Assembly (NCBI GenBank): GCA_041309145.1 | Contig: JBFZAG010000152.1 | Span: forward strand, 1-54,923 | Source of the DNA: Candidatus Omnitrophota bacterium | GTDB lineage: Bacteria > Omnitrophota > Gorgyraeia > Gygaellales > Profunditerraquicolaceae | Reading direction: 5' to 3' | DNA length: 54,923 bases | In this document: one piece after another, positions 3 to 24,000 of the stretch | Numbering within the stretch: the stretch's first letter is position 1 | Layout of the letters: each line of letters starts with the position of its first letter | Notes under the pieces: model-generated | Databases searched by the model: none | Seen by the model: only the letters and a program-made list of their open reading frames with translations | What the model was told of the DNA's origin: nothing | Translations under genes and position numbers: made by a program

Positions 3-3000
3 GCGCTTTATTTCTTCAGGGAAGGCATTGTAGTCCAGATCGGAGCTGTTCTGCTTGGCAGGTGGACCGGCGGCTCTTTGGGCGCCTGGATGTATCGGAC
101 ATTGAACGACCAGAAGGATGGGGGCCATGTGAAGAAATACCAGATCGGCCTGGCGGCTTTGTTTATTCTGTCCTTGTTTGGGATCTCGCCGCTGGGGGTT
201 TTATTCCTTATTCCCGCCTATGCGACCGCGTTTATCTTGTGGAAAAGATATTCCTCTCAATTATACGCCCATCACCCGCAGCGCCCCCATCCGCTTATGA
301 CGGGAGTATTATTGGTGGGAATGGTTTTATTCGCGGGCTTTGTTCCCGCGGTAAGCCTGGATATGTTGTTGAGCGGCTTGCTGGTGGCGGTGTTTATCGG
401 CGGAGTGGCAGGTTTTAGCTTGTTCGCCTGCATCGTTTCAGCTAAAGAGCATGATATCCTTGAGGGATTGAACCTCGGTTCCCGGCCGAGTAATTACGTC
501 GCCGTGGGGCGCGCTTTTGAACGCAGTTTCGGCAATTTGAAAGAAGGAAATGTCCCCGAGGCCGTATTGACGGCCAAGATGTTCTTTGAGATGCCCATTG
601 AGACCGAGATGAAACAAATGCTGAGCTTGGGCGACCCTATGGTTGATGATGTGCTCATGGGCACGGAATTCAGGAGATTCAACGCGATGGAGTTGGCGGC
701 TATGGGTTACGGAAATGAGTACCTGAGCCTGATAAACGCGATCGCCAGAAAAACCGGAGAAGGGACTTATCCCTATATGATAACGCGCAATCCCTACCTG
801 GACGGCGGAAATATCGTAGAATATCTCGTCGGCAATCCTTTTGGGCTGTGGGCTGTGCTTACCGCGGCGATGGGATTGCTGAGCTGGCGGGTGGTCAAGT
901 TCAGCGCCATGACCGGACAGCTTGATCAAGCCGTAACTCCGGAGCTTTACCAGGCAATAGGCCGGGTTGTTTTGATGTTCGGAGCTATTTCGATTTTAGC
1001 CGTAAATTTTGCTCCCGCCGGAATTATACAATTTGCGGTAGCGATAGCAATGGCCGGTATTACCGGAATATATCTGGGGCTGTTGATTTACAAATGGTTC
1101 GGCGGCCGTCCTCCTATGCTTGAGCCATATCGGAAAGTGCGCGGCTTCCAGAAGGATGGGGGAAAACCGGTTCAGACAAGGTTGCAAGCCCAGAATTTAA
1201 ATAACGAATTAGCGGAATTGTTATCCGCCGGTCCGGTCAAAGATTTTGTAATTCAGGAGATGGCCAAGAAAAACACGCTGTATCTCAATGACAGATGGGG
1301 AATAAGCATTCTGGACGGGATCGACAAAAACCGGCAGAATATACAAAGACAGGTTGGATTAATGGCATATTTTGAAAGAGGGCTGTTGATGCGTCCTTTT
1401 GTGAACTGGTTCGCCAAACCCGGTTCACGTATGCCGACAGTTTACAGCTTGATCGCCGAATCTTCTGTTCTTGGAGTACATCTGGCAGAAAAACAGGTTG
1501 ATTTCAAGAGAATGGGGATCAGCAAATCTCCGATCCCCGGAGGTTACGGCAGTCCGGCCTTCCGTTTGTCTACGGTGATGGAAGAAGCGGGATTCCCGAT
1601 GCGGGATAATCCGACAGAAGAATTTGTCGCGCCTTTAACCAAAGAGATCGCGGGGCTGATCGTTAAGGATGCCAGCGGAAGATTCCAGGCGCTGCCGGTT
1701 CCGTTTACGGAACAGCATATCCTGATCGACTGGGAAGGCCGGCCGATCGAGATGTGGCTGAGTGAAGGAAGGTATATTCGCCAGGAAATATTTGAATCGC
1801 TGTCGGGTATCGTCAATAAGCCCGGAGCGATCTTTATGGAAAGGCATCCTTTTGACAAACTGATGGAAGATGCCAGGCGCAATAAGTATGCGCCGGTCGC
1901 GCGGTATCATTCTCACCCGCTCAGGAACGAAAGCTTATTGCATCCCGCCTTGCTTCCGCTGCAGAGCATCCCGGATATCGTTATCGATCCGGCCGGCACC
2001 AGAGCAAAAATTTACACCTTTATCCATACTTCAGGCTCATCTCAGCAGCAGTTCCTGGAGAAAGACAGGCAGCTATGGGGTGTTAATATGGTCGAGGAGA
2101 ATCATGACCTTTTTGCCATGCTCAAGAATAAAAACTATCAAAAGGCGCGGCAAGAAATTATCAATCAGTATTTTGCCGTACAAGAAGTCTCTTTGATCAG
2201 CCTTGACGGCGGGATCTTTGAGCCGTTTGCGCCTATCGATAATTTCCGAAGAGCGTTTTACGCAAAGATAGACGAACTGGCCCGCCCCATATTCGGCGAT
2301 CTGGTCGGCACTCCTCTTTGGCAGGATTATGTATTTTTCAGCTGGGCCATTGTCGCGTCGACCCTGTTGTTTGCCATGCGCTATCATTACCGGGACGGAA
2401 TGGTTAAACATCCCGGTTTAAACGATCAAGCCAAACAGCCATATCTCAACCATCGCATCGCAGAGGGGCTATTCAACCATCCTCTGATCAGTTTTTCAAT
2501 ACGCTCCGCGGTTTCTTTGGCAGTAATCACTTTCCTGCCCCTGGAGCATGTCACCTTCATATCCGGGATGGTCTGTTTTATTCTGTCATTATGGTGCGGA
2601 CAGGCGGCGGGGGTCTGGTTATACAAGGCGCAGGGGGGGACAATTTCACCTGTGGTGAGAGAGCAGAAGGATGGAGGGAGAAAGCGCGTTGAACACGGGC
2701 TTTCGGATAAGGCGCTGGAAATGGGCAAGCGAGGGTATCGGTTAGTATATACGCCGCCGGTTCTGGGTAAATTGAAACTCGGCGTCCTGGAATTGCCGCA
2801 AACCAAAAAAGACGGCGACAAGGATGCGGGCGCGCTGGTCGGCGGGAATATGGCTGTTAAGGAAGGCATTCATGTTGAGGCCGCGGATAAGAAAAGAGAC
2901 GGGGGAGAAGTTAAAAAGCCGGCTGAGGAGATTTTTGCGGAAGACGGAAGCCTGGCGGCTATTTTTGCGGATACGAAGAGATCGGTAGAGAGATTCACGC

Positions 3001-6000
3001 CATTTTTAACGGATAATAATATAGCATTCCAGCCGGCGTTGACTTTCGGCAGAAAAGGCCAGAAGGCAGAAGATATCCATTATCAGCGCCCGGCTCCCGG
3101 GCAGCATAGGCCGCGCATAGTGCTTATGTTAGTTCTGGAGGGTAAGATCAAAGCCCGGGCGTATACCGTTTTAGACGAGTTTGTCGCCGAGAGGATTGTT
3201 GAGTCCGGCAATTTGATCATGTTTACCCAGGCTTATTATATTGAGTACCTGGAAGATACCAGGATGCTGGAGATCAAACAGGGGCCTTACCCCGGGGATA
3301 AGAAGAGGGACCGGGTTGTCCTTAGAGAGATCAAAGACGGCGGCAAGGCTGTCGGAGCGACAGTGAACACTAACGGAAAACAGCGCAAGAGTATTATCGA
3401 TATAACCGTGAATTTGGTGAAAAAACAGTTTGACGGTAAATTTATCGGTGCGCACAAAACTTACAATAAGATCATAGATCTCAAGAATCTCGCTTTTGCC
3501 GCTAAACAGGAATCTCTGTTCAACAGCGGGCAGATCAAACAGCCTGATTCCCGCGGGCCGCCCCGATCTTCCGAAGCAAATGAATTATTCCGGAACAATT
3601 ATTTGAAATGGACGGTGATCTTAAGTATTTTCACCGCTTCTTTCTTAACGTCCTCAGCAGTAATCCTGTCGCATTTTACCCTTGCGTCAATTTTGTTCAG
3701 CCCGTTTTGTTTTATCTTGAGCCTGGGCGGCGCCAAATTCTTCTTCTCGACTATTCTGACCTTGCTGGCGGCCAAACCGGTCCTGAATAAGACCCCCTAT
3801 AATGAAAAATTCTGCACGAATGTTCTTCCGAAAACATTTGAAAAATTACCTTCTCTTGCAATTGTCGTTCCTATAAAGGACGTTTCGAACCGCATTGTTC
3901 TGGAGACCCTGAGAAGAGCGGTCCTGGAAAGAGCGGATTATAAACAGGCGGGAGGCAAATGCTGTATTGTGGCGATCGATGACGACCTTTCAGTGGAAGA
4001 GGCGAATAGGTTGGGTTCGAGTACCCAAAAAGAACTGGAAAGGATCAATTTCTACCGCGCAAACAATATCGCTATCGTGGTTAGCCCCAGAGACATCGAT
4101 AGAAAAGGCAAGTTCGGCAAGCCTATCGCCATGAATTACATGCGGGAAGCATTGAAGAGCAATAACCTGCGTGGAGGCTATGTCGAAGGCGGGGCGAAAT
4201 TGGAAGAAGACGCTATCGTACTTCTTCTGGACAAGGATACCTATATTGCTCCGGGAGTCAGCAAGTTCATAATGAAAGAGTTTCAGGATGCCCAAAGATT
4301 GGCGTATATCCAGTGCCGCTGCGAACCTTATAACTTAAGTGAAAATTATTACACAAAAATTGTCGGATATATGACTACCCAGTATTATGATCTGGCTTTT
4401 CCGGCAACCAGCTATTTAGGGTCGCTTGTTCCTTTGGTCGGCCACGCGGTGTACCTGAGAGCTAAATTCTTTGACTGGAGCGAGAACAGGGTCAGCGAGG
4501 ATCTGGACCTTGCCATGCGCCTGGTCACCAAAGGGTTTTACGGGAAATATATGGATCTGCCTCCCGAGATGTCCTTCACGGAATATGTGGCCAATAATTT
4601 TGAAGAAGAAGCGATGCATACCCACAGGTATGTGTACGGAGCTCTGCAATTCGTTTTTAATCCGATCACTCAGTGGCACAAAAAAGGAATTATGAGCTCG
4701 CAGGTGAAGGAGTTCCTCAATTCGCCTCATATGCCCTGGTATATTAAGGTCGACCTTCTTATCTATATAGTAAATCTTTTCTCCCACCCCAGTATCTGGA
4801 TATTTTTATTCCTGGTTTTTCCTTTCCTGCCCCCGCATCCTTTATCCGCTGCCGGGCCGATCATCTTTTACTTTGTCATGGGAACCTGGGCGTCGGTCAT
4901 GGTCAACAGGGCCAGAGATGTAAGCCGGACCGAGAGGGGAATCATGGGAGAAATATTTTTTCATCTGAAATACGCTCTTCCTTACGGGTTCTCGGTTTCT
5001 TCCCACTCCTGGTACGGTTTTAAGGGTTTCCTGGATTTCGCCTTAGACAGAAAACCTAAATTCCGCAGCTCCGCAGCGGGCGAAAATTTGCCTGACTATT
5101 CTCTCCGGGAAGCGATCGCCCAGTCAAGATATTTAGCCAGAAGCCTCACGGAAAGCGGGCTTTTCCTGGCGCTGGTAGTTATTTCCGGGTTCCGCATTTT
5201 GGGGGCGGATATTCAGTTTATCGCCCTGACAATTTGGGCATTGGGAAATTATTTTGTCTGGCAGAACCTGATGAATCCGATCCTGGTAAAAAGCCTGGGC
5301 CGGGCCTCCAGACACGGATTAAAACAAATTAAATCCGGACTTCATTTAACCCGCTTGGAAGATTCTAAAGACCAAAAAGTTTTTGATATGCGCACTGCCG
5401 CCCAGGATAAAGCTGATCGGGACGGCGGGCAATACCTTGCTCAGGCTGTCGAACCGAAACCTGGTTTCGGAGCGCTGGTCAGGACCTTAGGCTCGGTTTC
5501 TTTTGTCATGCTCAAGGGAGGGCTCTGGGGCGGGATCGAACCTTTTACCCGCTACAAGATCCAACAGCGGCTGATGCGCGCTTACGCCATATTCGAAGGG
5601 CCGATAAACTATGAGACCATTGATGAGGTCATTAGGCGTTGGGGGCACACCTCATTTACCTATGCGCTTAGGGATCTGGAAGATTCCGGCGATTTTGACA
5701 GAGAAGATATTGAATGGGGAAAGTTCCTGGTGAGCCAGAAAGATGGCCGGGAATTCGCGGCCTGGTTTAAAGAGCTCAAAGCCCGCTATCCGCAAAATCC
5801 TTTCTTGAAAGAATTTGACCTTTGGCTGCAATACAGTTTAAAAGGGTCCCAGAATCTGATGCTTATCCGCAAGGTCTCGCGCCAGGAAGTATTAAAAGAA
5901 TTCAAACTGGATGCCGAAAAAGCAACAGTATTACTAAAAGGGAGAAATCCTTTTGTCGTGGATGAGCAGGATTTTCTCAAGGCCGCGGTGGTCGGCGCAA

Positions 6001-9000
6001 CCGATATCTTTGCGGCGCATCAGCGAAGCCTTAGGCAGGTGGTCAAAGACCGGTATCAATATGCCGGCCGCCTGGCCAATTTCGAGGATATGGTCAAAGC
6101 TAACGGTTTCTCCGTTGACAAGTTCGGAAAATTCTTTAACGCGGTGCATTGCGCTTCCAGCGGGGAGGAGCTTGACATCGAATTCAGCCTGATGAAAGAG
6201 AATGAGATTAAATACTTCGCGGATCGGCTGGCCAGATTTGTTAGCCGGCGCCGGGATCTCGACTGCGGCGAAATAGATATTTTTAACATCGAGCGGAACC
6301 TGATAGCCAGGCCGGAAGCGCTGTCCGGCGCCCGGGGCAAATTGCGCTTGGCCCTTGATACCCTGTTTGATTCCAATAAGTTCATCGAAGGGCTTGCGCC
6401 GGCTTTACAGATCTTTGACCTTAAGAGCAAAGCCTTGCCGTATGATTTTAAGATCGTCATCAAGGATGACGCGGAATTTCTGGGAGGGTTTGATGAAAAA
6501 TCCAAAAGCGTGTTCATCAACACGGCAATATTTGAGACCGGGCCGCCCCAGGTGATCGCTTTTATAGTCCTCTTAAACGCCTACAAACTTACCTATCCTG
6601 CCAAACCCGATGAAGTAGACGCGGCGGTCGTCCGCGAGGTCTACCGGCAAGCCGCCTACAGCAAAGATCCTTCTGATTCTATCTTTGTGCAGACCCGTAA
6701 TTACCTTATTGCCTACCTTCGATCAAATCAAGACGCTCAAGCGAGTTCCTGGCTCGGGCAATTAGATGAATTAAACCGGATCATGGCCCTGCGCCGGCCT
6801 GAGCTTCTTGATAATCCCGCGGAGTTAACCGGGCTGTTCAATTATCTCATTCGCCTGCGCGTTATCGCTTATAATCCTGAAAGCTCGGCTGAAAAGAAAG
6901 AGTACCTGGTTAATGGCAACCCGCTTTATGCCTGGTTTATGGCGGTCAGGGCTGACCGGCCCGCGGCAACAGTCAGTTTCAATAATCCGCAAACCCAGGA
7001 CCTGGAAAGTATTTTTGAACGTTCCGAACATCCGGCCGGATTCTGCGATCTCTGCAATAACCTCAAGATCAAGATCGAAGAAATAGCTCATATGGCCACG
7101 ATCCAGGCGATAAACAAACAATGGTGGATCAGGCCGAACCAGTTCCCGATTTTTAATAACCACGTGCTGTTATTGCCGCTTAAAGAAGGCCATGAAGTAG
7201 AAAAAACTCCCCAGCGGCTTATCCCGGCCTACATTGAAGACCTGCTATATATCAGCAATAAATACCCGCTGATGAGGATCTTCTTTAACAGCTACGGCGC
7301 CGGAGCTACCCAGGGGCATTTTCACGGCCAGGGAATCTTTAACCGGGAGCTGGTCCCGGAAAGATACAACCAGGAATATTTCAGGACCGTCAACGGCGTA
7401 AAGATCAGCCTGCTCAAAGATTATCCGGCCATGTGCCTGGTATTTGAATCCCAAAATACCAAAGAACTGGCTGAGCTGGTTCACCGGCTAAGCGATATCC
7501 TGCTTAAGACCGGCAAGCCGCATAATGTTTTATTCATCAAGGGCAAGCTCTATTTGTTCCTGAGGAACAAAGAAGTGCCGGCAAACTTTCCGCGGGTCAG
7601 GTTCGGGACGCTGGAAATGTGCAGCGAAATGATCCTGCCTTTCTGGGTCGATTATTACCGGACAGAGGAAAAGATCAAGGCGGCGGTATTTGAAGTGTTG
7701 AACGCCATTAAGTCGGACGAAAAGAAAACCCTGGCCCAAAAACTGCAAGAGCCTAAACCGGCCACCCTGCATAATATACTGCTTAACTTCTACAAAAAAG
7801 AGCTTTATGAAGGCGTTCTGAACAAAAGCGGTTTCGACGCAATAGAAATCCAGGTGCGGGATATTTTCGTCAACGTAAAAAAAGCCGGTATTAATATTAT
7901 CCGGCCGGAATCATTAGATCCGATGGGCAGTTATGTGGATGATAGCCTGGGACAAAAGATCAGAGACGCGCTTGTTGACATTTCTTTTAAAGCCGAGGAT
8001 CTCGAGCGCTTATTCCAGATATATGAAGCCCTGGAATATTTAGCCCCGAGGCAAGAGTTGCGCCAAGCGGATATTTTGATCCTCCTGGGAAACGAAAATC
8101 TGGAAGTATTAGAAAAAGCCGCCGAAGTGGCCGCTTGGGCCGACCAGGTTATTGTTTCGGGCTTCAGGGGAAGGCTGACCGAGGACTTGATCGAGAACGC
8201 GCAAGCCCGGTACGGCAAAGATTTATTATCCGGAAAAGATGAATCGGCTATAAGCGAGGCAGAGGTTATGGCTAAGATCTTAATAGCCAAAGGTGTTCCG
8301 GAAGAGAAGATCAAGCTGGAAGCAAGATCCAGGAACACCAATGAAAATGTGCAGTATACCAGGGAGCTGATCGAGCGGGAAAACCTCAAGCATGACACGG
8401 TGATCGTCATGCAGACCCCGCTGCAGCAGCGCCGGGCGGCGTTCGGGTTTAAAACCTTTTTCTTCGCGAATACAGAAGTGATCCATTACGCCTGGGGCAT
8501 ACCGGATGAATACGGCATGATCGATCCCGCTAAACGCAGAGTGCTCTGGACTGAGATCATCAATGAGATCGAAAAGATAGCCCTGTACGGAAATTTGGGC
8601 CTTCATTTCTATGATTTTGATCTATCGGAGTTTCCGGAGCATATCAGACGATTGCTCAAGATCAGATTAGCTTCCCGGATCGACCATACCAATTTAAAAG
8701 CGGACGCCACTGAACAGGAGATTACCAGGACCTGCCAGGAAGCAAAAGATCACGGGTTTGCCTTGGTAGCGATCCGGCCTCAGATGAGCGGAATTACTGC
8801 CAGTGAACTCGAGGGCTCTCAAGTTAAAGTCGGGCCGGCAATAGGGTTCAAGAATCTTATTACTGCGGCTGACAATGCTGCGGATCAGGAAAAAGCTTTA
8901 AAAAGATACGATATCTCAATAGAAGAAAAGTTCGAAGAAATCCGGGATTCGATCTCAGTTATAAGGAGACATGATCTCGGTTTTGAGATCGATTTTGTGA

Positions 9001-12000
9001 TCAATCTGTACAAAATGCTGGTTGAGAATAATAGCGATCATGTTGAAGCAGAGATCAAGATTCTTATTGAGTCTGTGCGCAGCCTGGAAAGGCCGGGAGA
9101 GCATATTATTGTTAAAGTCATTTTTGAGAATTGCTATTTAAGCGACGAACAGAAACAAACAGTATGCGCCTGGGCTGGGAAATACGGGGCGGATTTCGTA
9201 AAAACCTCTACCGGGTTCGGCCTGGCCGGAGCAACAGCCCAAGACGTATCTCTAATGAAAAAGAATATTGATCCGGCTATGCAGGTCAAGGCCGCCGCGG
9301 GGATTAGAAATCTTAAAGATATGTTTTCCATGCTCAACTCCGGAGCGTCCAGGATCGGCACCAGCGCGGGAAATGCGATCATTGCAGAAGTGGATAATTC
9401 CGGAGCGAAAAATATAGACGGCGGTCATGTGTTGGCCATAAACGGAGAGCACGGCGCGGGCAAAAGCACTCTGGCTAAAGAATTGGCAAAGATCACCGGC
9501 CTGCCGATTTTCAGCGGCGGAGCGATCATGCGCGGATATGCCGAAAAGAGGGGGATGAGCGTTAAAGCTTATACGGAAAAGTTCCTGATCCTGCCGGAAA
9601 ACGCCGAAGAGAATAAAAAGATCAATAATGCCATTGACCGGGCTCAGGAATTTGCCATACACAACGGCAATATTATTACCGAAAGCAGCCTGGGCGCATA
9701 TTACGCCGCGAAACACAAGGCTGATCTGGCTGGGCGGAATGTGAAGGTAACCAGGATCCTGCTGGTAGCTGATTCCCGGGCCAGGGCAGAGCGTTCAGTG
9801 CGGGGCATTTTGAACGGAACCCGTTCTCAAGATGAAATGATGACGGTGGAGAAAAAAGAGCGGGAGTTGATCGAAAGAGACGCTTTTGACCGGAAAAATC
9901 TTTTGCAGCTAACTGGCAACGTCTTTGATATTTTCGATACCCTGAATTATGACCTGGTGATCAATGTGACCGAGAAGAATCTGGAAGATGTTCCGACAAT
10001 GGCCAGAGCTATTCTCGTCTTTGCCGGTTACCGGGAGGAAGAAAGAGGAGTTCTGACAACCGATAAAGTTTTTGACGTCGCCGTATTCAAACTTAGATTA
10101 AATCCCAAAGAAATCGAGCTGATTGTTTCTCTGCAGAAAAAATTCAGCAACATAATGTCCTGGTCGGGCAAAGACGGCATTGTCAGGATCAACGGCAAAA
10201 AAGCGCCGCAAGCTAAATTCAGGCCGGTTGCCACCCATAAAAAACTGGCGGAGCAGGGATTTGCAGCGGTTATTCCTTTTGGCAATCTTTTCTGGCATCC
10301 TCACTATGTTGTTTACCGCTCCGGAAAGCTGTTTTATCGAAAAGGCGAGAAAAGAAATATCGCCAAAGGATATGAATACCCGAGCCTTGTTTTTTATAAA
10401 AACGGTACTGTGGGATTTAAAGCAATTAATTTTAATCAAAAAAACGGCTGGTGGAATAATAACAAAGCTCGCATCCGGACCGTTATAAGCGCTCCGACGA
10501 TAATAAAAGACAGCAAAATACTTGACCTCGAAGGAGTTCATTTTGAAGACATAAGGCACGTTTTCAGATGTCCCAAGATATTGGAGGGTCAGGATAAATG
10601 GTACGGAAGTGATATTTATTTAGGCAGAGAATTACTTTATTCCGACAGCCTGGCAAGATCACGCGCGTTTAAGGGAGAAGCCATAGAGGTGTCCTTAGAC
10701 AGGTATGACCTGACCTGGGAACAAATAGAAGAGGCTTTATCTGATGCCGGTTACAGCTTGGTTGAAAATCCGGGAGATGTCCGCTCGCGCGGCCAAGTTT
10801 ATCTGGATAAGGCATCCAATAAGATGGTTATTATAATTAAATTCTCTCAATATCCTCAAATGATCATGGCTTTGGACCAGGGGAATCAGCTCGTCTTTTA
10901 CGCTTTCTCCGGAAAATCCAGCAGAGAAGGTTTGACATTGGGCCAGATCCAGGAGTATCTGAAGGCGCAAGGGATAAAAGATGCAATGATCTTATGTAAC
11001 GGCAGCGATGTGAGTATGGAACATAACAATAAAGTAGTCTTGCCGACATGGAACAAGAGGAAAGCTTTTACCGCGATGATCTTTATTTATCCGTCAGGAA
11101 AAAAGAAAAATGAAAAGCAGGACGGCGGAGAAGATCAAGTAGTAGATAATAAGAAAGATTACGGCATTCTCAGGACGGATAAATGGCTTAAGCACCAGAG
11201 CAGAGTGGAGCAGGTTTACAACGGTGATTTCTACGGAGTGATCCCGGTAACGATACAGTTTGTGCCTTCTTTACTTTGTAATTTCGTATGCTGGGGCTGC
11301 ACTTACGCTGACCTTAAAGAAGATCCGAGGAATCATAATTCCGGATTGACGAGAAAACTTTCTTCCCAAGAAAAATTGATGGATTACAGTTTGATGAAAG
11401 AAGCGATCGATAAGCTTCGCAGGGATGGGGTCGAGGCGATAATCTTTACCGGCGGCGGAGAACCGACCATGCATCCTCAGCTGATCGATATTATGGAATA
11501 CGCCAGAAAGAAGGGCTTGAGAGTGGGGCTGTTCACCAACGGAAGCCTTTTGACCAAAGAAAAAATTATCCGGCTTTTAAATCTCAATCCCAGGTTTATC
11601 AGGATAAGCATCAATGCCGGCACAGCTCAAACTTATAATGCCATTCATGGGTTGCCTGAGGATAGCGGAACGCTTGACACGGTGCTCGGCAACCTGGAAT
11701 TCTTAGCTAAAGAAAAGGCAAAAAGGGAAGCGGAGATCATAAGCAGGCTTAAAGCAGAAGGTCGCAACGAAGAGGAGATCGATGCTTTTATAACCCACAA
11801 TGTCACTAACGTGAGCGTAGGTTTTATTGTCAATCCTTTAAACGCCAAGGAAGTAGAGATATTAGCCGGAAAATTAAAAGCGATTTATCAGAAAGATATT
11901 CGCGGCGGGATCAATTATTTCCAGATCCGCCCTACGGTAAATTATGAGCGCGGCAAACAGTATCCCAAAGATCTGGAAGAAAGAATGAGCAAGCTTCAGC

Positions 12001-15000
12001 AACAATTCCCGGAGGAAGTCGAATTATGGCGAGAGTTCATGTTCAACGGCAAGCAATTCCCCGAATCAGTCTGGGAAGAGGCTTTTAAGGAGATCGAGAA
12101 TATCCAGGAAGAAAGAGACGGCAGATTATTCATTAAGGATACCGCGATCCAATTAAGCGTTCCCGTTCAGAAATTCAAGGATATGCCTAAGATCAGCATG
12201 AAATCTTACGATAAATGTTTAGCCTGCTCCTGGGTCGCGTTCATTACTCCGCCTCAAGCTGCGGTGACGATCTGTTCGGAATGGGGCGGGACTGAGGATT
12301 TTATCATGGGTAATTTACAGGATCAGGATCTGCAAGAAATCTGGCAGAGCGAGAGAAGGAGAGAAGTGCTTGATCTGGTCAATGCCGGAGCTCTCCATAA
12401 GCGATGCCCGCCGATCTGCGCCTGCCATGAATTAAACATTGTTTTAGCCGCCCTGGAAAAAGAAAAATCAGGGGAAAATCTTGAAAAGTTCAAAAGGATC
12501 GCCGAGGAATACGTCGAGCGCAATCCCAGGAATGAGGACGATTATTTTATCTGCTCCATAATCCCCATAACCCCTCGAATTATGAAAGCCCTGGGCAATT
12601 TCATCGAAAGAATTACCGAAACGATCAAAAATATTAAAGCTGTTGCTGTGCCGCTTTTATGGGAAGGCAGAATCGATTGGATCAAAAAATTCGGGACAAA
12701 AGAAGCTTCTTGCGCGATTTGCGGGAACAGGGACTTTGCGGCGATAGGCAAGATCAGGATAAACGGAAAAACATTGTATATCGTCAAATGTGCTGCTGAC
12801 GGTTTCATGTGGCTGAACCCGCAACCGCAAAGCGAATTTTACGATTCTTTATATTCGAAAGAATATTTTGAAAAGAACAGTAAAACCGAAGAATTATCAG
12901 AGCAGGTGGGTATTCTAGAGGATACCAATCCGGAAATAATAGTCAGGCGCAAAAACGACGCAAAAGCCAGGGTTGATGAGTTGGAAGCTGCTCTCGGCAG
13001 GAAAGGAAAGGTATTGGAGATCGGGTTTGCCAGCGGTTATGTATTGGAAGAGCTTAACAGGAGGGGTTGGGATTTCGAGGGCAATGAAATATCCGAATAT
13101 CAGATCAAGATCGCGCAAGAAAAAGGCCTGGGTGAGCATGTCAGATTGGGCAGTCTGCAGGATTTACATTATCCCGCCGAGAATTTTGACGCCGTGTTGC
13201 TTTACGACCTTCTGGAACATGTTCCCGATCCCAAAGGATATATGGAAGAAGTCCGGCGTATTTTAAAGCCGGGTGGAATAGTGATCATCAGAATGCCTAA
13301 TACGCCTGAAAGCGGACCGCAACTGCACCTTATCGATCATATAAGCCATTTCTCGGAAAAAACCTTAACGTTGCTTTTAAATAAGGTCGGATTCGAAGTG
13401 CAGGCTGTAAATGCTACCGGTATTTTTAAAGCCTCAAAAGATAGAGTGATTAATAATATTACCGTGATCTCTCAAAAGACGATCAGCAAAGACGGCGGTT
13501 TATACGAAGAAATCCGGGATAAAGACGGCAAACTGGCAGCTTTTATCGTTAATACCGCAGCTAAGATCGATGGCAAATTCGTTCCTTTAACCCAGGATAC
13601 CAGCCTGGCGTTCCAGCTGGCCATCAATCAGGGCAAAAAAGGGGAAAAAGGCAAAGCAATCCATTATCATACTCCCGCTCCCGGACAGAGCGCGCCCCGC
13701 CAGGAGATCCTGATCGTTCTGGAAGGAAAGATCAAGGGTCTGATCTATGATTTGAACGGCGCCTTTATAAAGGAAGTCCTGGTCAACAAAGGAGAAGCTA
13801 TCCAGTTCACCCAGGCCCACAATATCGAGTTTATGGAGGATGCGACTATCCTGGAGATCAAGCAGGGGCCGTTCCCTGGGCCGGAAAAGGATAAGGTGGT
13901 ATTTGCGGCCCGGGACGGCGGATCATCCGGAGTAATTTCGAGGCGCCATAATGTTAACAGCAAGTTCAGCCGTATTCCCTGGTTGATCAAACAGATGACA
14001 GAAGAAGAGATCCAACGCGTGGTCGCCGGATTGCCGTTGACAGTTCCCGCGTATGTAGAGCTCCATCCCTACTATTACCAGAACGAAGCGAATTTCCCCT
14101 GCAATAACGATTGCCGCCATTGCACCAGGCGTATGGATAAGTTCGCTCTGCACAAGTCCGGATGTATCGGCACCATTCCGGAAAAGATGCTGGCTTTGAT
14201 CCCGGAATTCAACGGCAAGCGGGTCCATGAATTTGTGATCGCCGGCAACAGCACTGAACCCCTTTTATATCCGCGGATCGACGAAGTGATCAGAAGGATC
14301 AAGGATTCCGGTTCATCTCTGAGGCTTTACAGCAATTTTTATTACGGCGACAAGCTGGTAGAGGTGGCGTCTTACCTGGATGACCGGGATCTGATCAAGA
14401 TCAGCCTTGACGCGGGAAGTGACCAAGCTTATTACGCGACGCATCGTCCCTTAAACCATGACCGCACGGCCTTTAGCCGGATTCTGAACCACGCTGAAAA
14501 CTTACTTGAGGCCCGAGACGATAATGCCGGTAAGTTTGAATGCATGATCGGTTTTCTGATGACACAGCTGAATACCGCCAGGAAAGACCTGGAATATATC
14601 GTCAGATGGGCCGCACGCCACGGGGTTGACTCTATCGGTTTCATCCGGCCTCTCGCTCCTACCGAGCATAATGAGGAGTTTTATCCCTTAACCGAGCAGG
14701 ACATGAAAAGAGTCCAGCGGCAGATGTTGACGATCGCCAAAAAATACGGGGATGATATAGAGATCGTCTTCAGCCTGAAAGAATCCATTCCTCCGGAAAG
14801 ACAATTCCCTGCCTGCCATTATTGGAAGATGGGCGCGATCCTCAGCTCCCGGGGGATCTTTACTCCCTGCACCGCTACCGCGGAAGGACGCCATATCGGA
14901 TCATTCGGGCTGGGCAACATCAACGATGATAATTTTGATTTCTGGGGGTTCTGGAGTAATCAGAATAAATGGCCGGATATAGACGTCAGCCTGTGCCCGG

Positions 15001-18000
15001 AATGCACCAGGGGCGAGATGCAGTTCAATGATTATATCCACGGGCGGATCAATGGTTTGCTTGACGGCGGGTCAGCCGTGCTGGACGAACAAACCGCCCG
15101 GCAATATATCGACGCGGGTTGGAAGTTCGATTTCAAGAGAACTCTTCGCGCTGCCTACAAGCGGGAATGGAAGAAAACACTCCAGACAAAAGCAAAAAAT
15201 ATTGTTGCCAAGACTTTGATCGGAAACAACTGGTTTAATCGCGAGAGTAAGGAGTTCATCTCTTATGTTATCCATCCCGACAAAGATATGGCCGATAGGC
15301 TTTACGATACGGCAAGAAGTTTTAAGTCCCTGATGCCCGAAATAAGCTTAGACAAGCTGGGCGACGCCACTTTCGATAATATTCCGGCTATGTCAGCCTG
15401 GTATCAGGCCCCCAGTACTTACCACATCACGGTTTTTGCGATAAGAGGGACGATCGCCGAGGATAAGGCCAATGTTTTATATCAAAAGGTCGCCGCTAAA
15501 AAGAGTGATTTGACTGCAGCGCTTGCGGGTATACCGTCTTTCACAGTGTTCGTTGAAGGGTTGATGCTGACCGACAACGGGACCCTCTTAGCCAAAGGCA
15601 TTGTCACCAACGGCAATCTTTTCAAAATTAAGAGAGTGCTTAAACAGTTCAGCGCGCCCATTGATCCGGCTTTCGCCGCTCAGCCGACTCTGCCTTTTGT
15701 CCATATGAGCCTGGCTCGGATAGTCGGCAAAATTGATCCTAAAAAGTTCAAAAATCTTAAGTCCAAGATTAAGGGTAGAAAGTATACGGAGTTCGGCCGG
15801 TTTAGCGTCGACTCAATTCGATTCGCCCATTCAGATGTTTATCTAAAATGGGCAGACAGCGACTACACCATGTTTAAGCTCAAGGACGGCGGCGAAAAAA
15901 CGTTAGCTGAAAGAATAAAGGATAACGAGGCAATATTGAACAGGCGTTTCTTCGGATTGACTGAGACAGTTGTGCTCAAGATAGACGAACTGGGTAAAAA
16001 GGAGGCAAATAATCCTCAACAAATGGCAACTCTTGAGGAAATTCTCAGCGGAATAGAAGAAGTTAAGGAAAGCTTGTTTAAGGACGATATGGAACAGCGC
16101 CTAGAAGCGTTACGACGGCTCAAAGATATGGGTAAAAAGTCTGTTTTGGAGCATTCCGGGGCTGAAGAGATGCTTGATTTTGTCGATTTTCATGTTCACA
16201 CTTTCTTTAGCGACGGATTATATTCGCCCGCCTTTATAGTTTATCTTGCCTGGAAAAAAGGACTGAAAGCGATCGGAGTGGTCGACCATAATACTGCCCG
16301 CCATTTCGAGGAAGCTGTCAAAGCAGCGCAGATACTCGGGGGCATCACGGTTATTCCCGGTATAGAAATGGATATTTCCACCAAGCCGAATGACGGTAAG
16401 AACTTCCTGGAGTTCGTCCACATTATTGCTTATTTTCCTTACGGCTCAGGCATCATAGGAAGAAGTGATGAAAAAGAATTTCTTGACTGGCTAGAAGGAT
16501 TCAGGGGGAGCGATTTCTGGAAGGCGGCGGAACTGCGCAGGCGGATGAACAATAAGAAGCAGGAAATGATCCGCCAGCGGTTGAATGGGAGCATATATTA
16601 CAAAGATTTGAAGCCTGTCGCATTGTCGGATATTTTTCGGCATTCTCCAGACCACGCGAGCTGGTTCCAACTGGCTGGGCTGCTCTCTGAAAATGAAACG
16701 TACAAAAGCGGGCTCTTTTCGAATGTCCCGCAGAATATGGTAAGGGAATATTTAGTTAGGGATTTAACGAAAGCGGAAGAGAAAAAGAAAGATGCAGCTA
16801 AGAGAAAATCCGCAGATCAGATAAAGGAAGAGGCGGAAAAGATTTCCGCTGAGATTGTCGCTGGAAAATTCGAACCGAAACATGTCCGCGGATTCTATTT
16901 CGAAGAAAATAAGTTTGGCAAAGAGGAGCTGCGCAGACCCGCTGATTTCTGGAAGAAAGGAGGGTTCGGGCTTGATCTTGGAGAATTTTGTGCGCTTGTG
17001 AATAAATGGAATGCCCTAGCTGTCTTAGCCCATCCCATAGAAGACAGGAATTATTGGGAAGGCAAAAAACGTGATTATAAGGAAGCGACAACCGCGAAAA
17101 AGGTAGAGATGCTCAAAGAGGTGTTGCAAACAATAATCGCCAGCTATCCTGAATTCGCGCATACGCTTAAAGGCGTGGAAATATACAGTTCTAAATTCCC
17201 GGCCCGGTCCGACATGAATGTTTTTGAAGCGCTTATCAAAGATATTTTCGGAGAGAGCATTATCTTCATTCTTGGCAGCGACAGCCACTATAACAATAAT
17301 GAGCCTGATGAAAAAGGCGTCGAAATGGCCACCGGCAAGGGCGGCAATCTAAAAGAGATAAATAAAGAGCTGGCCCCGGGACTGTTCGAGAGCTTCATGA
17401 AAGTGTCCGGAGATCTTATGAATAAGGATGGGGGGCAAAAGATAGAGATTGATAAAAACGTCTGGCTTGATGTGGAAAAAAATGAGCTTGTGATAAGGAG
17501 ACGTCTTCGCGATCCGTGGATAAATTATTTTGGTATTTTTCCCAATCAGCTGTTTGGGAAGATCACCCATACCGCCGCAGGCACAACGTGGTTCAAAGAG
17601 GCTCTAAAGAATCGTCTGACCAGAGAAATCATTTTAGGGAGCGCCAAGGATTCTATCGGAAGATGGCTTTATATTCGCGATAATGAAACCGGAAAGTTTT
17701 TCTCCCCGACTATAAGGCCGACTACGGGCATAACGCTTGATTTCTATGAGTGCCGACACGGTTTGGGTTATACCATAATTACAGGAGAATATCTGGATCT
17801 CCGTTGCACGATAACGTATTTTATCCCTAAGAAAAAAGGAATCAAGGGGAATATTGAAGTGCAATCAGTTATTATTGAGGATTTAAGCGGCAGGAAAAGA
17901 GATCTATCTGTTTTCTCTTACCGGGAATTTGTTAATGATTCCGCCTTAGAAGAAATTACCCAAATCCAGAACACCGCTTATATTACTGATGAGTTTGTTC

Positions 18001-21000
18001 AAAAAGGGAATAAGATCATTTGGTGCTTAACCGGCAGAACTCGGAATAATCCTAATAAGCCTTTATATTTCTTCGCTTCGACTGAAAAAGCGGTCGGATT
18101 TGACACTAATCTAGTCACATTTACGGGAGAAGATTCTGATTTGCACAATCCGGAAGCAGTTAAAAACGGAAAATGTAAGAATTCTGTCGCTGATACGGAT
18201 TCTGTTGTAGGCGTTTTACAGGTAAACCTTGAGTTGGAAGGAAAAGATAAGAAATCGCTCGCCTTCATTCTAGGAGCAATAGAACAAAAGATTGATCAAG
18301 ATAAGGTCGATAATATCAAACCTGATAAATTGACACAGTCACTGGCAAGTTCATTGCTTAACGATTGGCGGAAAAATACGGAAAATAAGACCGCCCAGGA
18401 AATAAATGCCATAAAAGACCATTTTAACGATAAATTATCGGTTTTTAAGTGCCGGTTGCCGAAAAGCGAAATCGCCATGGAGCACATGATCAATGTCTGG
18501 GATGCTTATGATGTCTTGATCAATCATCTATTTTCCCGTTCCATCGCGGATTATGCCTCCGGCCTGAGCCGGCCTAATATGGGGACCAGAGATTCTGCGC
18601 AGGATATTTACGGACTGGTCCAATTAGACCCGAAAAAAGCCCGTAAGAGGATCCTGGATCTATTCAAGTATGCTCAGCTGGAAAAGGGCAATTGTTTCCA
18701 TCAGTTTAATGTCATAGATAAAAAGGGTGAAGGGGAAACTGACTTTTCCGATGATCATCTCTGGATCATATTGGCGGTAGTAGTTTATATAAAAGAAACC
18801 GGCGACTTCGGAATTTTAGATAAAGAGATCGGTTATGCCGATAACAAGAATAAAAAAGAAACCGTTTATAAGCACATGTTCAGGGCAATTGAGTACACGA
18901 TGGGGAACTGCGATCCCGAAACAGGCTTACCCTGGATGCTCAGGGCTGATTGGTGCGACGCTTTTAATCCTCTTTACAAAGGGCATCTGGCCGCGGCCTA
19001 TAGAAAGAAAGTCGGTAAGCTTGAGAAGAAAGGTTATACGCGCGACGAAGCGGTCAAGATCGTAATGAAGGATTCCAAGGCTACCTCTGCCATGGTCGCA
19101 ATGATGCTGGTTTTCATGGCCAAAGAATTAAGAGAAATAGCGGACAGGTCTAATAAGCGGTCCGGAAAAAAATATTTAGATAATGTTATCAGCAAAATGA
19201 GCCAGAATATAAACAAGCGCGCCTGGTTCAAAAACGGGGCGGACGAAGGTTGGTATGCCATGGGCACAGATTTTAACGGAGAATTTTTCGGAACTCCTGC
19301 CAAAGATGAAGTCAATATCTGGCTACTGCCGCAAGTCTGGGCATTGCTTTCCGGAGTTGCAGATAAGAAGCAGGCTAGAAAAATAATTAAATCTGTGGAC
19401 CGATATCTTTTTGGAAAAAATTACGGGTTGCTTTTGTTCAGCCCGGCGTACAAAACTAAATGCCCCGAAGGTTTTAATATTACTTATTACCCTGCTGGAA
19501 TGAAAGAGAACGCGGCAAACTTCTGCCATGCTAACGCCATGGCGATCGCAGCTTTTGCGCTAAAGACGGATGAAGGCGACATGGTTTATAAATGGTATAA
19601 AGCGTTATTGCCTCCAGAAGCCTGTAAGAAGCTGGGGGTGAATAGATATTTAGCTCCTCCGAATACGCATGCCCAGTTACGTACCGGGCCCGAATACAAG
19701 ATCAGCGGAATGACAAAAGGCTCGAGGCTTACTGGAACTGCCAGTTGGAGCTATTGGGGGGAATGCCAGTATATTTTAGGAATAAGGCCGGAATACGATG
19801 GTTTAGTGATCGATCCCTGTTTGCCGTCGAAATGGGATTTAAGTAAAAAACCAGTAATAATATTAAGAAAATTCCGAGAAGTTACCTATGAGATATCGAT
19901 AAAGAAAGACAAAGGCGTAACCAAGGGGGTGAAATCAATTCTTGTCGATAATAGAAAAATTTCCGGCAAGAAGATCACTTTCCAGAATGGCAAAAAGAAT
20001 GTCAAAGTCTCAGTAATTATGGGCAGAGACGGCGGTGAAAAGATCGATACCGCTTTTGAAAAAGGATTTTTTATTTTAATTGCAGGGAAAGCGGTTTCAA
20101 AAGAATTGGCTGACCGGAAAGGTAGCAATGATGTGGGCGCGCTGGTCGGCGGGAATATGGTTATCAGGGAAGGAATTCATGTAGAGGTCGCTGACAAGAA
20201 GAAAGACGGGGGAAAGAATTGGGTTGCGATCGATACGCTGAATCAGAATAAGCTCGATGAATCTTCCCTTAAAAATAACCCCGCGTTGTTTGTTTATGGC
20301 CCAACCATGGTTGCGGGATGTCCGTTCAATAAAGAAAAGGGAGGCGAAGAGTTCCTGGATACCGCGCAAAGTATTACGAAAGCATTAAAGGATATTTTCG
20401 GCGACCAGGTGTCTGTGTACGAGACTAACCATATGCATTGCACGATAGGAGCCATCAGGGGGGGAGATTACAAAAATCCCGGCAAAATTCTTACCTCGCT
20501 TGATCCGGCGGATATTGATTCGATGCAAAAAGTGTTGGAATCGGGCAGTTTTTTTAAGATCAAGCTTGAAAGCGTTATCATTGCTTCACAGGGCGAGATC
20601 CTGATATTAGGTCAGGGTTTTGATCCGGGTTCGTCTTCCGTTATGTCGGAAATACGGGTCGGGCTGTCTGAAAAGGCGCATTTCGATATACGGTCGCATA
20701 ACCGCGGAAACCGGGCGCATGTTGCAATAGGATATTTTAAGGCAATGCCGCGGCAGGCTGATCTGGAATTGTTCAAAAGCCGGGTTGAAGCCATGCTTTC
20801 CGGGCGCGCAGCCGGCAAAGACTGGTTTGCCGAAGTTGAAGTTACCCGTTTCCTGCTGGCGCATTATGCTCATCGGAGCCTTAACCGGATCGCCGCAAGC
20901 GTTGAATTCAAGCTGGGCGCTCGATCATCCCATAATGCAAATGATATTCATCAGATCTTGATCGAAAAAGCCGAAGGATCGCCTTTAGATACGACAGGAG

Positions 21001-24000
21001 CGCTACGGGAATGGCTGGAAGAAAAAATCAGGCTCGAGAACAAGACCGGGCAGGAGCGGATTTTCCGGCTGGAGCAGCTTGTTTCCGTCATCCGCAAACA
21101 GGGGTTGGTAGACGAAGATGATGCTCGGAAACTTTTATCGATGACCGGAGCTGACGGCGGTATTTCCGGTCGCGCGAAGGGATCTATTCTAATATCTGAA
21201 GCCGCTGCCAGGATAGCTTCTTTGTGCGCTACCGGCGCCTCGGAGAAGATCTTTGTAGCATTCCCGTTCAACGAGCGGGAAGATAACAGGAGCGACTTGG
21301 AAATCAGGGTGCCTGTTGCGTGCACGGAGGCAGACCGGCTCCTGATCGCGGAGTTTATTCTGGCGCGAGTCCTGAATGTTATGCTCGTTAACGCCGGCCC
21401 CGAAGCAGTCATTTCCGCGCCGGACGGCTGGCAGAAAATTCTTGCCGCTACCCGGGATAGGTCGTTCTATTTCCGGAAAGCCGGGAAAAGCCTGGCCGGG
21501 TATTATGGAACTTTCTCTTTGAGGATCGAGGGCTTCGACAAAGCCCCGAAAATAGAGGCGATCAAGCATTCAGCGGCAGGGTTTTCGCTGCTTCACGGCG
21601 GATCAAGCGGAGTCTTCCTGGGGTTTGATTTTGGCGGCACCGGCATTAAAATGGCTTTCTTGGCCCAGGGCCAAGAGAAATATATAGGGAAGATCACCCC
21701 CGGGGTTTACTCGTTCAAGGACGCCGATGATTATGTCGGTTTTATCCGGAAAGCTTTTGAAGAGGGAAAGCAGGCTTTACAGATTCAGGCGAAGACCGGA
21801 AAAGTTGACGGGATCGGCGTTTCCTGGAATACGTCAACCCGGGGCGATGAGCCGGTATTGGGAGGTAAACAGGCCGACAAATTAAAGACAGGCCGTAATA
21901 ACGGTCCGTTCGATCTCGGGATGACCATACGCGCGATCGCCGAAGAAGTTTTCGGGAAAGATGTCCAGGTCACCATCCGCAACGACGGTGATTGCGGGGC
22001 GGCGCAGGCTGTATTTGCGGCCGGAAAGATCAACAATGTGACTTATTTAGGTCTTGGGTCGGGAGTGGCATTCGGCCAGATCGATGAAGCGGGGCGGACT
22101 GCGCGCGGATACGGGGAAGCGCATTTTGCCCGGATAGTTCTCGGCGAAGATCAGGTCGCGGAATTTGGGACGCCGGGAGCGCTTTCTTATTATGTCGGAC
22201 AGGCCGGATTTGTGCGGATCGCTCAGGAGCTCGGCCTTATTCCTGCCAACACGCTGACTTTCGAGCAGATGTCCTCGGAGGTGTTCAAGGTTATTTCTTT
22301 GGCAAACAGCGGTAATGCCGATGCCATGGAGCTTGCAAAGATCATGGGGGGTTATCTCGGGGAAGGGATCTTGGAGCTTAGCCGGGCATGGCCCGTAGAA
22401 ACGGTGGTCGTTGGCGGCGGGTTGACAACGGGCGAGTTTGGACTGACCATGACCCGCGCAGCCCAGGCAAGCATCTTTAAGGACGATCCGGCGTCTCCGC
22501 TCAGGGTGATCCGCTATCCCGAGGAATCTTCCGGGGTCAGCTCGCTCGGCGCAGCCAGGGTTGCCCAGGCGCGGTATTATCATCTTCGCCAGCGCAGCAA
22601 GCTGAAAGAGGCTCTCGCGCGGGAATACGACGCGTATCTGTTCGATGTCGATGCGACTGTAACTTTGAAGAACGACCTGTTTTCTCCGCAGATAATCGAG
22701 ATGCTTGTTAGTCTCGCGGCGGCCGGGAAATATGTGGTATTGTGTTCCGGCCGGCCTTTCGTTGCCAACGAGGAAGAGCGGAATGAGGGTAAACACGATA
22801 TGAAGGAAGTTTTTGATGCGCTTACCCGCGTTGCCCTTACCCGCGGGGCGTTGGCTGAAATACTTCCGCGGATCTTTTTTGTCTGCGGCAACGGTACGTA
22901 CGTGGTGCGGGCAACGGATCTTTCATCCAGGGAATGGATGCGCGGCGAGCCGATCTTTACGCTTGAACAGCAGCAAGAGATCTATGACGCGCTGAAAGCG
23001 TCTCCGAAAGGCGGCAAGGTGCGCCTGATCGAACACGGCCAGGAAAAGATAATGTTCGCCATTAAATTGCATAAGGATTGTTCTAAAGAAGAGCGCGCCG
23101 CTCTTCGGGCCGCTCTTGAGGAGATCGCCGGACAATATTTTCCCGGCCGCTTCCATATATTGGAGAGCAGGTATACCTTTGACATCGTCGCGAAAGACGC
23201 GGACAAATACATGGCCATCGAATACCTGGCAACCGCGCTGGGGATCCCCGAGCACCGCATCGCCGCAGTAGGCGATTCCGGGACAACGGAAGGGAATGAT
23301 TTCCGGATAACTAACCGCCGGGGAGGGTTTAGCGTGCTTCGATCAGCGGGAACCGACGAGCAGGTGAGCGTGCCTTCCGCTACGGGGTTGGTTTTTGCGT
23401 CTGCCACCGAGTTTGTGCTGAAGGGTTTTCTTTTGAAGGCGCAGCAGCAGGCAAATGAGCGGAAATTAATGGAGGCGCTCCTGCGTTTCGCGAATACGGC
23501 TGCCGGTAAGGATCAGCAGAAGAATGTTGAAGGCGAATCAGTCTTGTGGGAGCTTGAGAAAAATGATTTTATCGCGCTTCTCGGCAGTTTCGTTCTCAGG
23601 GAGAAAGCAGAAATCAATCTCAGAATACGCGACGGGCCGAACGGCATGGCTTTATCCCGCGTTATCAGCCGCCTCAATAAGTTCGCTGTTTCCGCCGCTT
23701 TTCAATATTATCTGCGCTGGCATAACCGCCCGGATCTGGAATGGAAAGCAGGGCTTTTTGTCTACGGCAGCAATTCCAAAGGTTGGGCGGTCAACGGCTC
23801 TGATTTTGATTTCGCACTAGTTACTGACGAAGATATGTTAATTTCGGAACGCGATGAATTGTATCATTTCCTCAGAGATATTATCGCTTGCTTAGGTTTC
23901 GGCAAGGTTTCTCCTGCCATACAGACTTTCCCATTCTCCGGATTAGCCGGCACGCTTTCAAGTAAAATGGACCATAACCGTTTCAACGAATTGATGCTGT

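Follow-up and report, generated by a model that had tools for sequence, protein, structure and literature searches.

A DGG-bounded module with a probable MPN/JAB-like fold and an apparently decayed zinc site in a giant multi-enzyme gene of Omnitrophota

The giant proteins of Omnitrophota pose the question of whether they are cleaved at all, at which sites, and by which enzyme. C39 and S8 domains have been described near the N-termini of such proteins and self-cleavage has been proposed, while the cleavage points are unknown (West-Roberts et al. 2023; 10.1101/2023.11.21.568195). The question is raised again by a stretch of 54,923 nucleotides from a Candidatus Omnitrophota bacterium (assembly GCA_041309145.1, contig JBFZAG010000152.1), in the following called the window. 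It is occupied by a single open frame (3..54923, frame +3, zero stops over 18,307 codons, open at either end of the window). Near the beginning of this frame, a module carries the sequence H-S-H-P, which an initial annotation of the window had read as part of a possible JAMM/MPN+ isopeptidase site, perhaps serving to cut the giant product at its recurring Asp-Gly-Gly (DGG) sites. In this study, we analyzed the predicted fold, the candidate zinc site, and the homologues of this module as well as the DGG sites. On balance, we lean slightly towards a decayed, non-catalytic module of the MPN-minus type with remote JAMM ancestry. All coordinates refer to the plus strand unless stated otherwise.

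The core of the module (residues 545-675; 1635..2027) is predicted to form an MPN/JAB-like alpha/beta structure, as judged from an AlphaFold2 (AF2) model, Foldseek searches in PDB and BFVD, and the register of hhalign profile alignments. In the AF2 model, the strand EIAGLIVK is followed by a hairpin, an extra hairpin (QHILID/PIEMWLS), two helices, and the strand APVARYHS, after which a Pro-rich loop leads to the strands DIVI(DP) and RAKIYTFIH. The model, which covered residues 521-737, had a mean predicted local distance difference test value (pLDDT) of 63.9 and a predicted template modeling score (pTM) of 0.59, with the main strands and the C-terminal helices at 70-89. All 50 of the 50 listed Foldseek PDB matches of this core model were JAMM/MPN proteins or complexes containing them, and the chain identities were confirmed for many of these matches. 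The best was PfJAMM1 (5ld9; E 1.5e-3, prob 0.99); the others included Rpn11, CSN5, Sst2/AMSH/STAMBPL1, BRCC36, Cap3, a bacterial Ubl (ubiquitin-like protein)-deubiquitinase, DSY2949, and EMC8/9. In BFVD, a phage 'Metalloprotease' ranked first (E 6e-5, template modeling (TM) score 0.48), followed by a 'JAB domain-containing protein' and a 'Deubiquitination hydrolase'. For this predicted structure, the Foldseek result is one of consistency of the matches, not of a strong match, and the scores are marginal.

Profile alignments point in the same direction. Against a profile of Rpn11 and CSN5, whose two reference sequences match 4ocl_B and 4f7o_A at 100% identity, the profile of the module family (A6) reached an hhalign score of 30.3, in register over strands 5-6, versus a mean of 12.6 (standard deviation 2.3, maximum 20.5) for 200 column shuffles. 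The register was unchanged after removal of the window row (score 26.7) and also for the trio of stand-alone homologues without an intact HxH (A8; score 20.3). The family consensus 'aPi.rY.S.P' is thereby paired with 'vvGWYHSHP', and 'eiViDP.G' with 'vavvvDP' of Rpn11 and CSN5. Greedy extension also pairs the terminal 'YYxIEE' strand of the family with 'YYSLNIDY' of Rpn11, at low posterior confidence. Taken together, the AF2 core model and the hhalign results make an MPN/JAB-like fold of the module core probable, with an appreciable rest of doubt.

Within this predicted fold, two parts of a JAMM site stand where they are found in MPN proteins. Glu548 (1644..1646) lies at the start of the strand EIAGLIV (KEIAGLIV, residues 547-554; EVMGLMLG in Rpn11), i.e. 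at the strand 2 start and thus the topological place of the JAMM catalytic Glu, and H636-S-H638-P (1908..1919) lies at the end of the strand APVARY, corresponding to the end of strand 5. An upstream Glu and an H-S/T-H at the strand 5 end, as found in members of the JAMM family, are therefore present in the window copy. According to the in-frame translation, KEIAGLIV, APVARY-HSHP, and SIPD are all located in frame +3 where the initial annotation had placed them. The spacing that it had given as a caveat was found as well: 16 residues separate His638 from Ser655, and the gap between Glu548 and His636 amounts to 87 residues. The long Glu-to-His distance is not disqualifying in itself, as the spacing in BRCC36 is similar.

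The remaining part of the site is missing in the MPN register. S655-I-P-D658 (1965..1976), the S-x-x-D candidate of the initial annotation, was rejected as a canonical S-x-x-D, as it lies at the start of the strand DIVIDP, which is aligned with VAVVVDP of Rpn11. In the MPN register obtained with hhalign, the relevant segment is S-L-L-H-P-A-L (residues 644-650; 1932..1952), with His647 opposite the catalytic Ser (S119 in Rpn11) and Leu650 opposite the zinc-binding Asp (D122). Counted from His638, the x7-S-x2-D feature is absent as well, with Leu646 and Ala649 at +8 and +11 and S655/D658 only at +17/+20. The connecting segment is Pro-rich and 6-8 residues shorter than in Rpn11. The defining JAMM motif is E-x(n)-H-S/T-H-x7-S-x2-D (PMC300881); with His647 at the Ser position, Leu650 at the Asp position, and S-I-P-D on the next strand, the window copy therefore does not carry it. 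As a mere string, the motif is of little weight. In residue shuffles of the 18,307-residue product, H[ST]HP occurred at a rate of 0.015 per shuffle; 22% of the shuffles contained the relaxed pattern H.H.{5,20}S..D, and 19% contained it together with an upstream Glu. The full motif as a string match is thus not beyond chance; the conserved block around it exceeds chance.

Comparison with the homologues, which comprise proteins P0001 to P0006 and the contig L002 described below, revealed that the putative ligands are not kept. The block at the end of strand 5 reads ARYHSHP in the window, ARYRSHP in P0001, P0002, P0003, and L002, LWYHSFP in P0004, LWYYTSP in P0005, and IRYISYP in P0006. In the order window, then P0001 to P0006, position 636 is H/R/R/R/H/Y/I and position 638 is H/H/H/H/F/S/Y, and among the eight aligned sequences both His residues occur in the window copy only. 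Glu548 is kept in P0001, P0002, and L002 and is replaced by non-acidic residues (V/L/I) in the stand-alone proteins P0004-P0006, while position 658 reads D/E/E/E/E/T/D in the family alignment. Only Tyr635, Pro639, Leu646, Pro652, and Phe673 are invariant, and all five are residues of a structural type. Judged by these alignments, the zinc site is incomplete in the window copy and decayed across the family. Of the proposed JAMM/MPN+ resemblance, Glu548 and HSHP at the MPN places of the predicted fold hold, whereas the S-x-x-D and a conserved zinc site were lost on closer inspection.

Sequence-family searches gave no significant assignment. The Pfam profile Prok-JAB (PF14464) matched the window copy with 13.7 bits (E 0.059) versus a cut-off of 25; this partial match comprised only columns 49-76 of 114 and stopped exactly at HSHP, and in a 350-residue context E was 0.17. 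None of the six homologues (0/6) matched Prok-JAB, leaving the window copy alone to touch the profile, below threshold. Searches with NCBIfam, PADLOC, and the PDB sequences yielded no match, and the family profile matched no PDB chain. Against a genuine Prok-JAB alignment of 16 AfJAMM-like proteins, all PF14464, the family profile obtained an hhalign probability of 0.5%, and the window sequence alone was aligned over 13 columns around HSHP. Yeast Rpn11, used as positive control against the same alignment, showed E...HSHP...S..D in register. The initial annotation had regarded a lack of JAB/MPN hits as evidence against its own proposal; such a lack was found at the level of significant sequence-family matches, and a match is present at the level of the fold.

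The limits of the module are defined by DGG sites and by free-standing homologues. The upstream DGG junction (FQK-DGG-K, residues 385-387; 1155..1163) coincides with the position at or just after which the stand-alone proteins P0004 and P0006 start. According to the HMMER family alignment, the homology unit spans residues 388-737 (350 residues; 1164..2213) and ends with L-DGG; the stand-alone genes match this span. It consists of a poorly conserved helical N-terminal part, the MPN-like core, and a helical C-terminal part with a final strand. The closing junction (ISL-DGG-I, residues 735-737; 2205..2213) is matched by F-DGG in P0001, P0003, and L002, and the last residue of the stand-alone homologues is at most about 10 residues away from the position aligned to it. 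Free-standing genes with their own start and stop, encoding 324-342 residues, thus cover the interval between the two DGGs of the module. The module had initially been drawn from 1164 to 2678; its start is correct, and its end overshoots the intermediate DGG at 2205..2213. The part behind it (2312..2678) is a second unit, in which the hydropathy scan detected a transmembrane-like hydrophobic cluster followed by EQK-DGG (residues 890-892).

The family to which the module belongs is very rare and was previously unannotated; its members are found in giant open reading frames (ORFs) as well as in free-standing genes of other phyla. HMMER, run exhaustively with the module over 1.84 billion representative proteins, gave 6 matches, and a seventh was found on one contig of a metagenome-assembled genome (MAG). 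Word-indexed homology searches found nothing, or P0005 only. Of two genome-contig scans for relatives, the first was empty and the second gave L002 only, scans of metagenome and viral contigs yielded no relatives, and self-BLAST detected no second copy of the module in the window. The closest homologue, P0001 (RKY40432.1), is a partial protein from a MAG of Candidatus Omnitrophota. Altogether, the family consists of modules of giant ORFs and free-standing proteins of 324-459 residues.

Two relatives are informative with respect to the arrangement of modules. L002 (L002:1-2682), the 2.7-kb MAG contig CAZBLX010000165 labelled uncultured Planctomycetia, consists of one open frame and represents part of a related giant ORF. 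Its RSHP version of the MPN-like module ends with F-DGG and is followed by a DGG-bounded module matching Peptidase_M54 (archaemetzincin; HELGHTFLGERHCGNECLM) above the gathering score; a second HExxH (IHEFIHW) follows further on. P0003 (HIE14022.1) is an 814-residue fragment of a giant ORF, which was compared with residues 604-737, 39-258, and 2672-2746 of the window product. It contains the MPN-like module, a DGG, a homologue of window residues 39-258, and later DUF218. This order differs from that in the window, so that DGG-bounded modules appear to have been shuffled as units. The P0003 record is binned as Bathyarchaeota and is probably a mis-binned short contig.

The premise of the proposed processing system, the existence of DGG junctions, proved to be sound: the junctions are real. 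DGG is by far the most over-represented tripeptide of the product, with 39 sites versus 5.0 ± 2.2 expected from residue shuffles (z = 15), and Lys precedes it at -1 in 21 of the 39. Not one of these sites (0/39) is located within a Pfam envelope, although the envelopes span 31% of the residues (P = 5e-7). Within 1-10 residues upstream of a domain start, DGG was found for 6 of 19 starts, versus 0.64 on average and at most 5 at random (5000 trials). Examples are DGG-M-IRPVALIILDG (N-terminus of iPGM) and DGG-IKIIGLAGIVGS (CoaE). More generally, a K/Q-K-D-G-G motif often precedes the native-like N-termini of the iPGM, CoaE, ROK, cytidylate-kinase-like, GT5/GT4, and Hydrolase_3 domains by 1-10 residues. 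Such K/Q-K-D-G-G sites are candidate cleavage or linker points. Ten of the 39 DGG sites are those at nucleotides 117, 1155, 2205, 2670, 9417, 28533, 36900, 37512, 49599, and 51375.

At the DGG sites, GAC (33/39) and GGC (27/39) are preferred over the backgrounds of 38% and 36%, respectively. A nucleotide-level signal behind DGG was considered and ruled out, as Asp before any Gly is encoded by GAC in 29 of 37 cases and Gly before Gly by GGC in 34 of 65. Over the whole window, the same codon-pair effect is visible in about 80% GAC for Asp before Gly versus 38% GAC overall, and in the preference of Gly before Gly for GGC. The codon bias at DGG is thus explained by the general codon-pair context, which places the DGG signal at the peptide level. 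Also, GACGGCGG is confined to the coding frame and does not occur on the opposite strand (0).

Some of the junctions are part of larger repeats. Self-BLAST revealed a unit of hydrophobic segments ending with G..G.W.Y, about 15 residues, and QK-DGG, which is present three times in the first 900 residues (residues 17-41, 275-387, and 767-892; nucleotides 51-125, 825-1163, and 2301-2678). A cassette of 26-33 residues with the pattern GALVGGNM[AV]xxEG[IV]HVE[AV]A[DE]KK[KR]-DGG also occurs three times (2823-2906, 20115-20213, and 29595-29681). Each of its copies has another DGG 29-76 residues upstream and is therefore a short conserved peptide between two junctions. DGG junctions are not mentioned in either of the two preprints on giant genes of Omnitrophota (10.1101/2023.11.21.568195, 10.64898/2026.06.07.730766).

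The reading towards which we lean treats the segment as the core of a DGG-bounded module of about 350 residues (388-737) of a giant multi-enzyme gene, with HSHP most likely left over from a JAMM zinc site of which different family members keep different fragments. Because the zinc-ligand positions are not conserved, the conserved role of the family would be non-catalytic, namely that of a binding or assembly module of the MPN-minus type. The flanking hydrophobic segments would hold the module near the membrane, and it would not be the enzyme acting at the DGG junctions. Several observations weigh against this reading. The TM-scores of the PDB matches were 0.2-0.37, and none of these matches had E <= 0.001. 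A first, longer AF2 model of the full module (pLDDT 49) gave a meaningless Foldseek list without MPN proteins. The fold is derived from one medium-confidence model, which was based on 7 sequences and had the HSHP-bearing copy as its target, and the motif in this target sequence may have steered AlphaFold. The absolute hhalign probabilities are low (29%, 12%, and 1.8%). Non-catalytic function is deduced from non-conservation in only about 8 sequences, the window copy does carry the Glu and the HxH, and His647 could in principle serve as third zinc ligand in this copy. Those of these points that concern the fold would fit a coincidence, i.e. an unrelated alpha/beta fold with a chance HSHP, for which the MPN-like model and the hhalign signal would be short-motif artefacts. 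The weak model confidence and TM-scores and the first model without an MPN match are what such a coincidence would produce, a single R-to-H transition would turn the RSHP of the relatives into HSHP, and the relaxed motif turns up in about 20% of the shuffles. The lack of any significant Pfam, NCBIfam, PADLOC, or PDB sequence match, be it with the single sequence or the family profile, and the 0.5% hhalign probability versus Prok-JAB would also be expected. A coincidence would, however, hardly let MPN/JAB proteins dominate the Foldseek lists of two independent libraries, and the profile register persists without the window sequence as well as with the stand-alone homologues lacking an intact HxH. 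Moreover, the signal includes VIDP as a second block and also, though at low posterior confidence, the YY-strand at the end. We therefore regard a coincidence as conceivable but rather unlikely.

The opposite interpretation is that of the initial annotation, in which the window copy is a working, if atypical, JAMM metalloprotease that cuts the giant protein after K-D-G-G and releases its modules. Glu548 would then activate the water, and His636 and His638 together with His647 or Glu643 would hold the zinc. Characterised JAMM enzymes cut after a C-terminal Gly-Gly, the DGG junctions are real, the Glu and the HxH are at topologically right places of the predicted MPN-like fold, and no other peptidase was recognised in the window at E <= 0.05. 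In the MPN register, however, Leu650 takes the place of the canonical Asp ligand and His647 that of the catalytic Ser, and in the core model the Pro-rich loop of 18 residues is too short for the S-x-x-D helix. The Gly-Gly cut by known JAMMs is preceded by a beta-grasp domain that they recognise, whereas DGG here follows unrelated folds, and P4 is Lys and not hydrophobic. Four of the five giant-ORF-type copies (P0001, P0002, P0003, and L002), which also have DGG, read RSHP and are one zinc ligand short. Since these copies lack a zinc histidine while retaining the junctions, junction processing, if any, cannot generally depend on this site. A functional JAMM/MPN+ isopeptidase is consequently not supported in view of the sub-threshold Prok-JAB match, the variable ligands, and the non-canonical S-x-x-D, and the same applies to a GG-specific protease within a self-contained processing system; we consider such an enzyme improbable. 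It is very unlikely that the window copy is the last working member of a decaying JAMM-derived family and cuts after K-D-G-G. If this were true, the giant product would be a bacterial polyprotein that processes itself by means of an internal Gly-Gly metalloprotease, with Glu548 as its base and zinc bound by His636, His638, and a substitute ligand such as His647, and iPGM, CoaE, the ROK kinases, and other enzymes would be set free with native-like N-termini. An active hydrolase of another kind on an MPN-like scaffold, with a substrate other than Gly-Gly, e.g. a glycan- or lipid-linked amide, would suit the adjoining sugar-metabolising enzyme modules and the Q-x-x-L-I-D-x-E-G hairpin and Arg conserved in the six members covering that region. 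The family has no metal-binding or nucleophile residue conserved throughout and, apart from the MPN fold, resembles no characterised hydrolase, which makes this option highly improbable.

The module was also compared with known systems. JAMM/MPN+ proteins (Rpn11, CSN5, AMSH/Sst2, BRCC36, AfJAMM, and PfJAMM1; PF01398 JAB, PF14464 Prok-JAB) have in common with the module the predicted alpha/beta fold and the order of its elements, the Glu at the strand 2 start in an E-x-x-G-hydrophobic context, and H-S-H-P at the strand 5 end after an aromatic residue, followed by a hydrophobic-DP strand. With Rpn11 and CSN5, it additionally shares a C-terminal helical extension and a last strand of the YY type. 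Unlike these enzymes, the module has no family-level sequence match, its motif is incomplete, and its His and Glu are not conserved among homologues. MPN-minus proteins (Rpn8, CSN6, KIAA0157/Abraxas, eIF3f/h, the Prp8 Jab1/MPN domain, and EMC8/9) function in scaffolding or partner binding, and several of them are among the Foldseek matches of the core model. The module resembles them in combining a predicted MPN-like fold with a decayed zinc site and in retaining 'WY-x-[ST]-x' as a trace of the HxH strand (RYRSHP, WYHSFP, WYYTSP, and RYISYP in the family). It differs from them in that no active MPN+ partner was identified, that it is embedded, DGG-bounded, in a giant membrane-tethered polyprotein-like ORF, and that it belongs to a distinct sequence family with very few members.

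If cleavage after Gly-Gly is to be assigned to another enzyme, a double-glycine leader peptidase of the C39 type would be the obvious choice. In Pfam searches of the window product in 19 consecutive 1000-residue pieces (E <= 0.05), no peptidase family was detected, including C39 (PF03412); the gene extends beyond the window at both ends. In canonical C39 substrates, the residues at -4, -7, and -12 are hydrophobic, unlike the DGG junctions of the window with their Lys at -4. HExxH (VILRHELFHLLDPEKSEAE) occurs only once in the window (31281-31295, residues 10427-10431), 55 residues upstream of the DGG at residue 10486 and without a Pfam match. By its sequence, it could be a minimal metalloprotease-like motif.

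The open frame of the window covers an inner part of a giant, membrane-tethered multi-enzyme gene and belongs to the 'multi-enzyme' type of giant Omnitrophota genes, whose description its product fits (10.1101/2023.11.21.568195, 10.64898/2026.06.07.730766). Pfam matches in the 18,307-residue product comprise GT2, radical SAM/SPASM, methyltransferase, DUF218, GH94, GH3, two ROK, iPGM, CoaE, HAD phosphatase, GT5, and GT4 domains. Pfam and the hydropathy scan of the product thereby revealed a row of ordinary cytoplasmic enzymes broken up by clusters of hydrophobic segments. ORFs on the minus strand or in other frames under the HSHP segment (1544-1882, 1635-1916, and 1870-2196) are unsupported, as the protein conservation is found in frame +3. 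JAB/MPN domains are mentioned in neither of the two preprints, and among the top-ranked full-text results of a literature search there was no paper joining Omnitrophota with JAMM, MPN, or JAB.

The genomic context of the free-standing homologues was inspected in three cases (P0005, P0006, and P0056), and no ubiquitin-like partner was seen in these neighborhoods. P0056 is encoded on a 138-kb contig of a Bipolaricaulota MAG (L007/L008:10001-11029). Its neighbors are an MmeI-like restriction-modification gene, an NTP-transferase/HepT toxin pair, an HNH endonuclease, a PIN toxin, and a UvrD/PDDEXK helicase-nuclease, and this neighborhood looks like a defence island. P0005 (L001) is located near genes for ClpB-like, FHA-like, TPR, and CHAT-protease proteins. 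A correspondence between an operon at P0005 and the fusion in the giant gene was ruled out, the neighbors being non-homologous to other parts of the giant protein.

With regard to the cutting of giant Omnitrophota proteins, the HSHP module is a weak candidate protease, and the junction enzyme is better sought among the C39, S8, and M54 modules of related giant genes. The DGG junctions themselves can be tested by proteomics. The module, for its part, defines a very rare and probably MPN-derived family.

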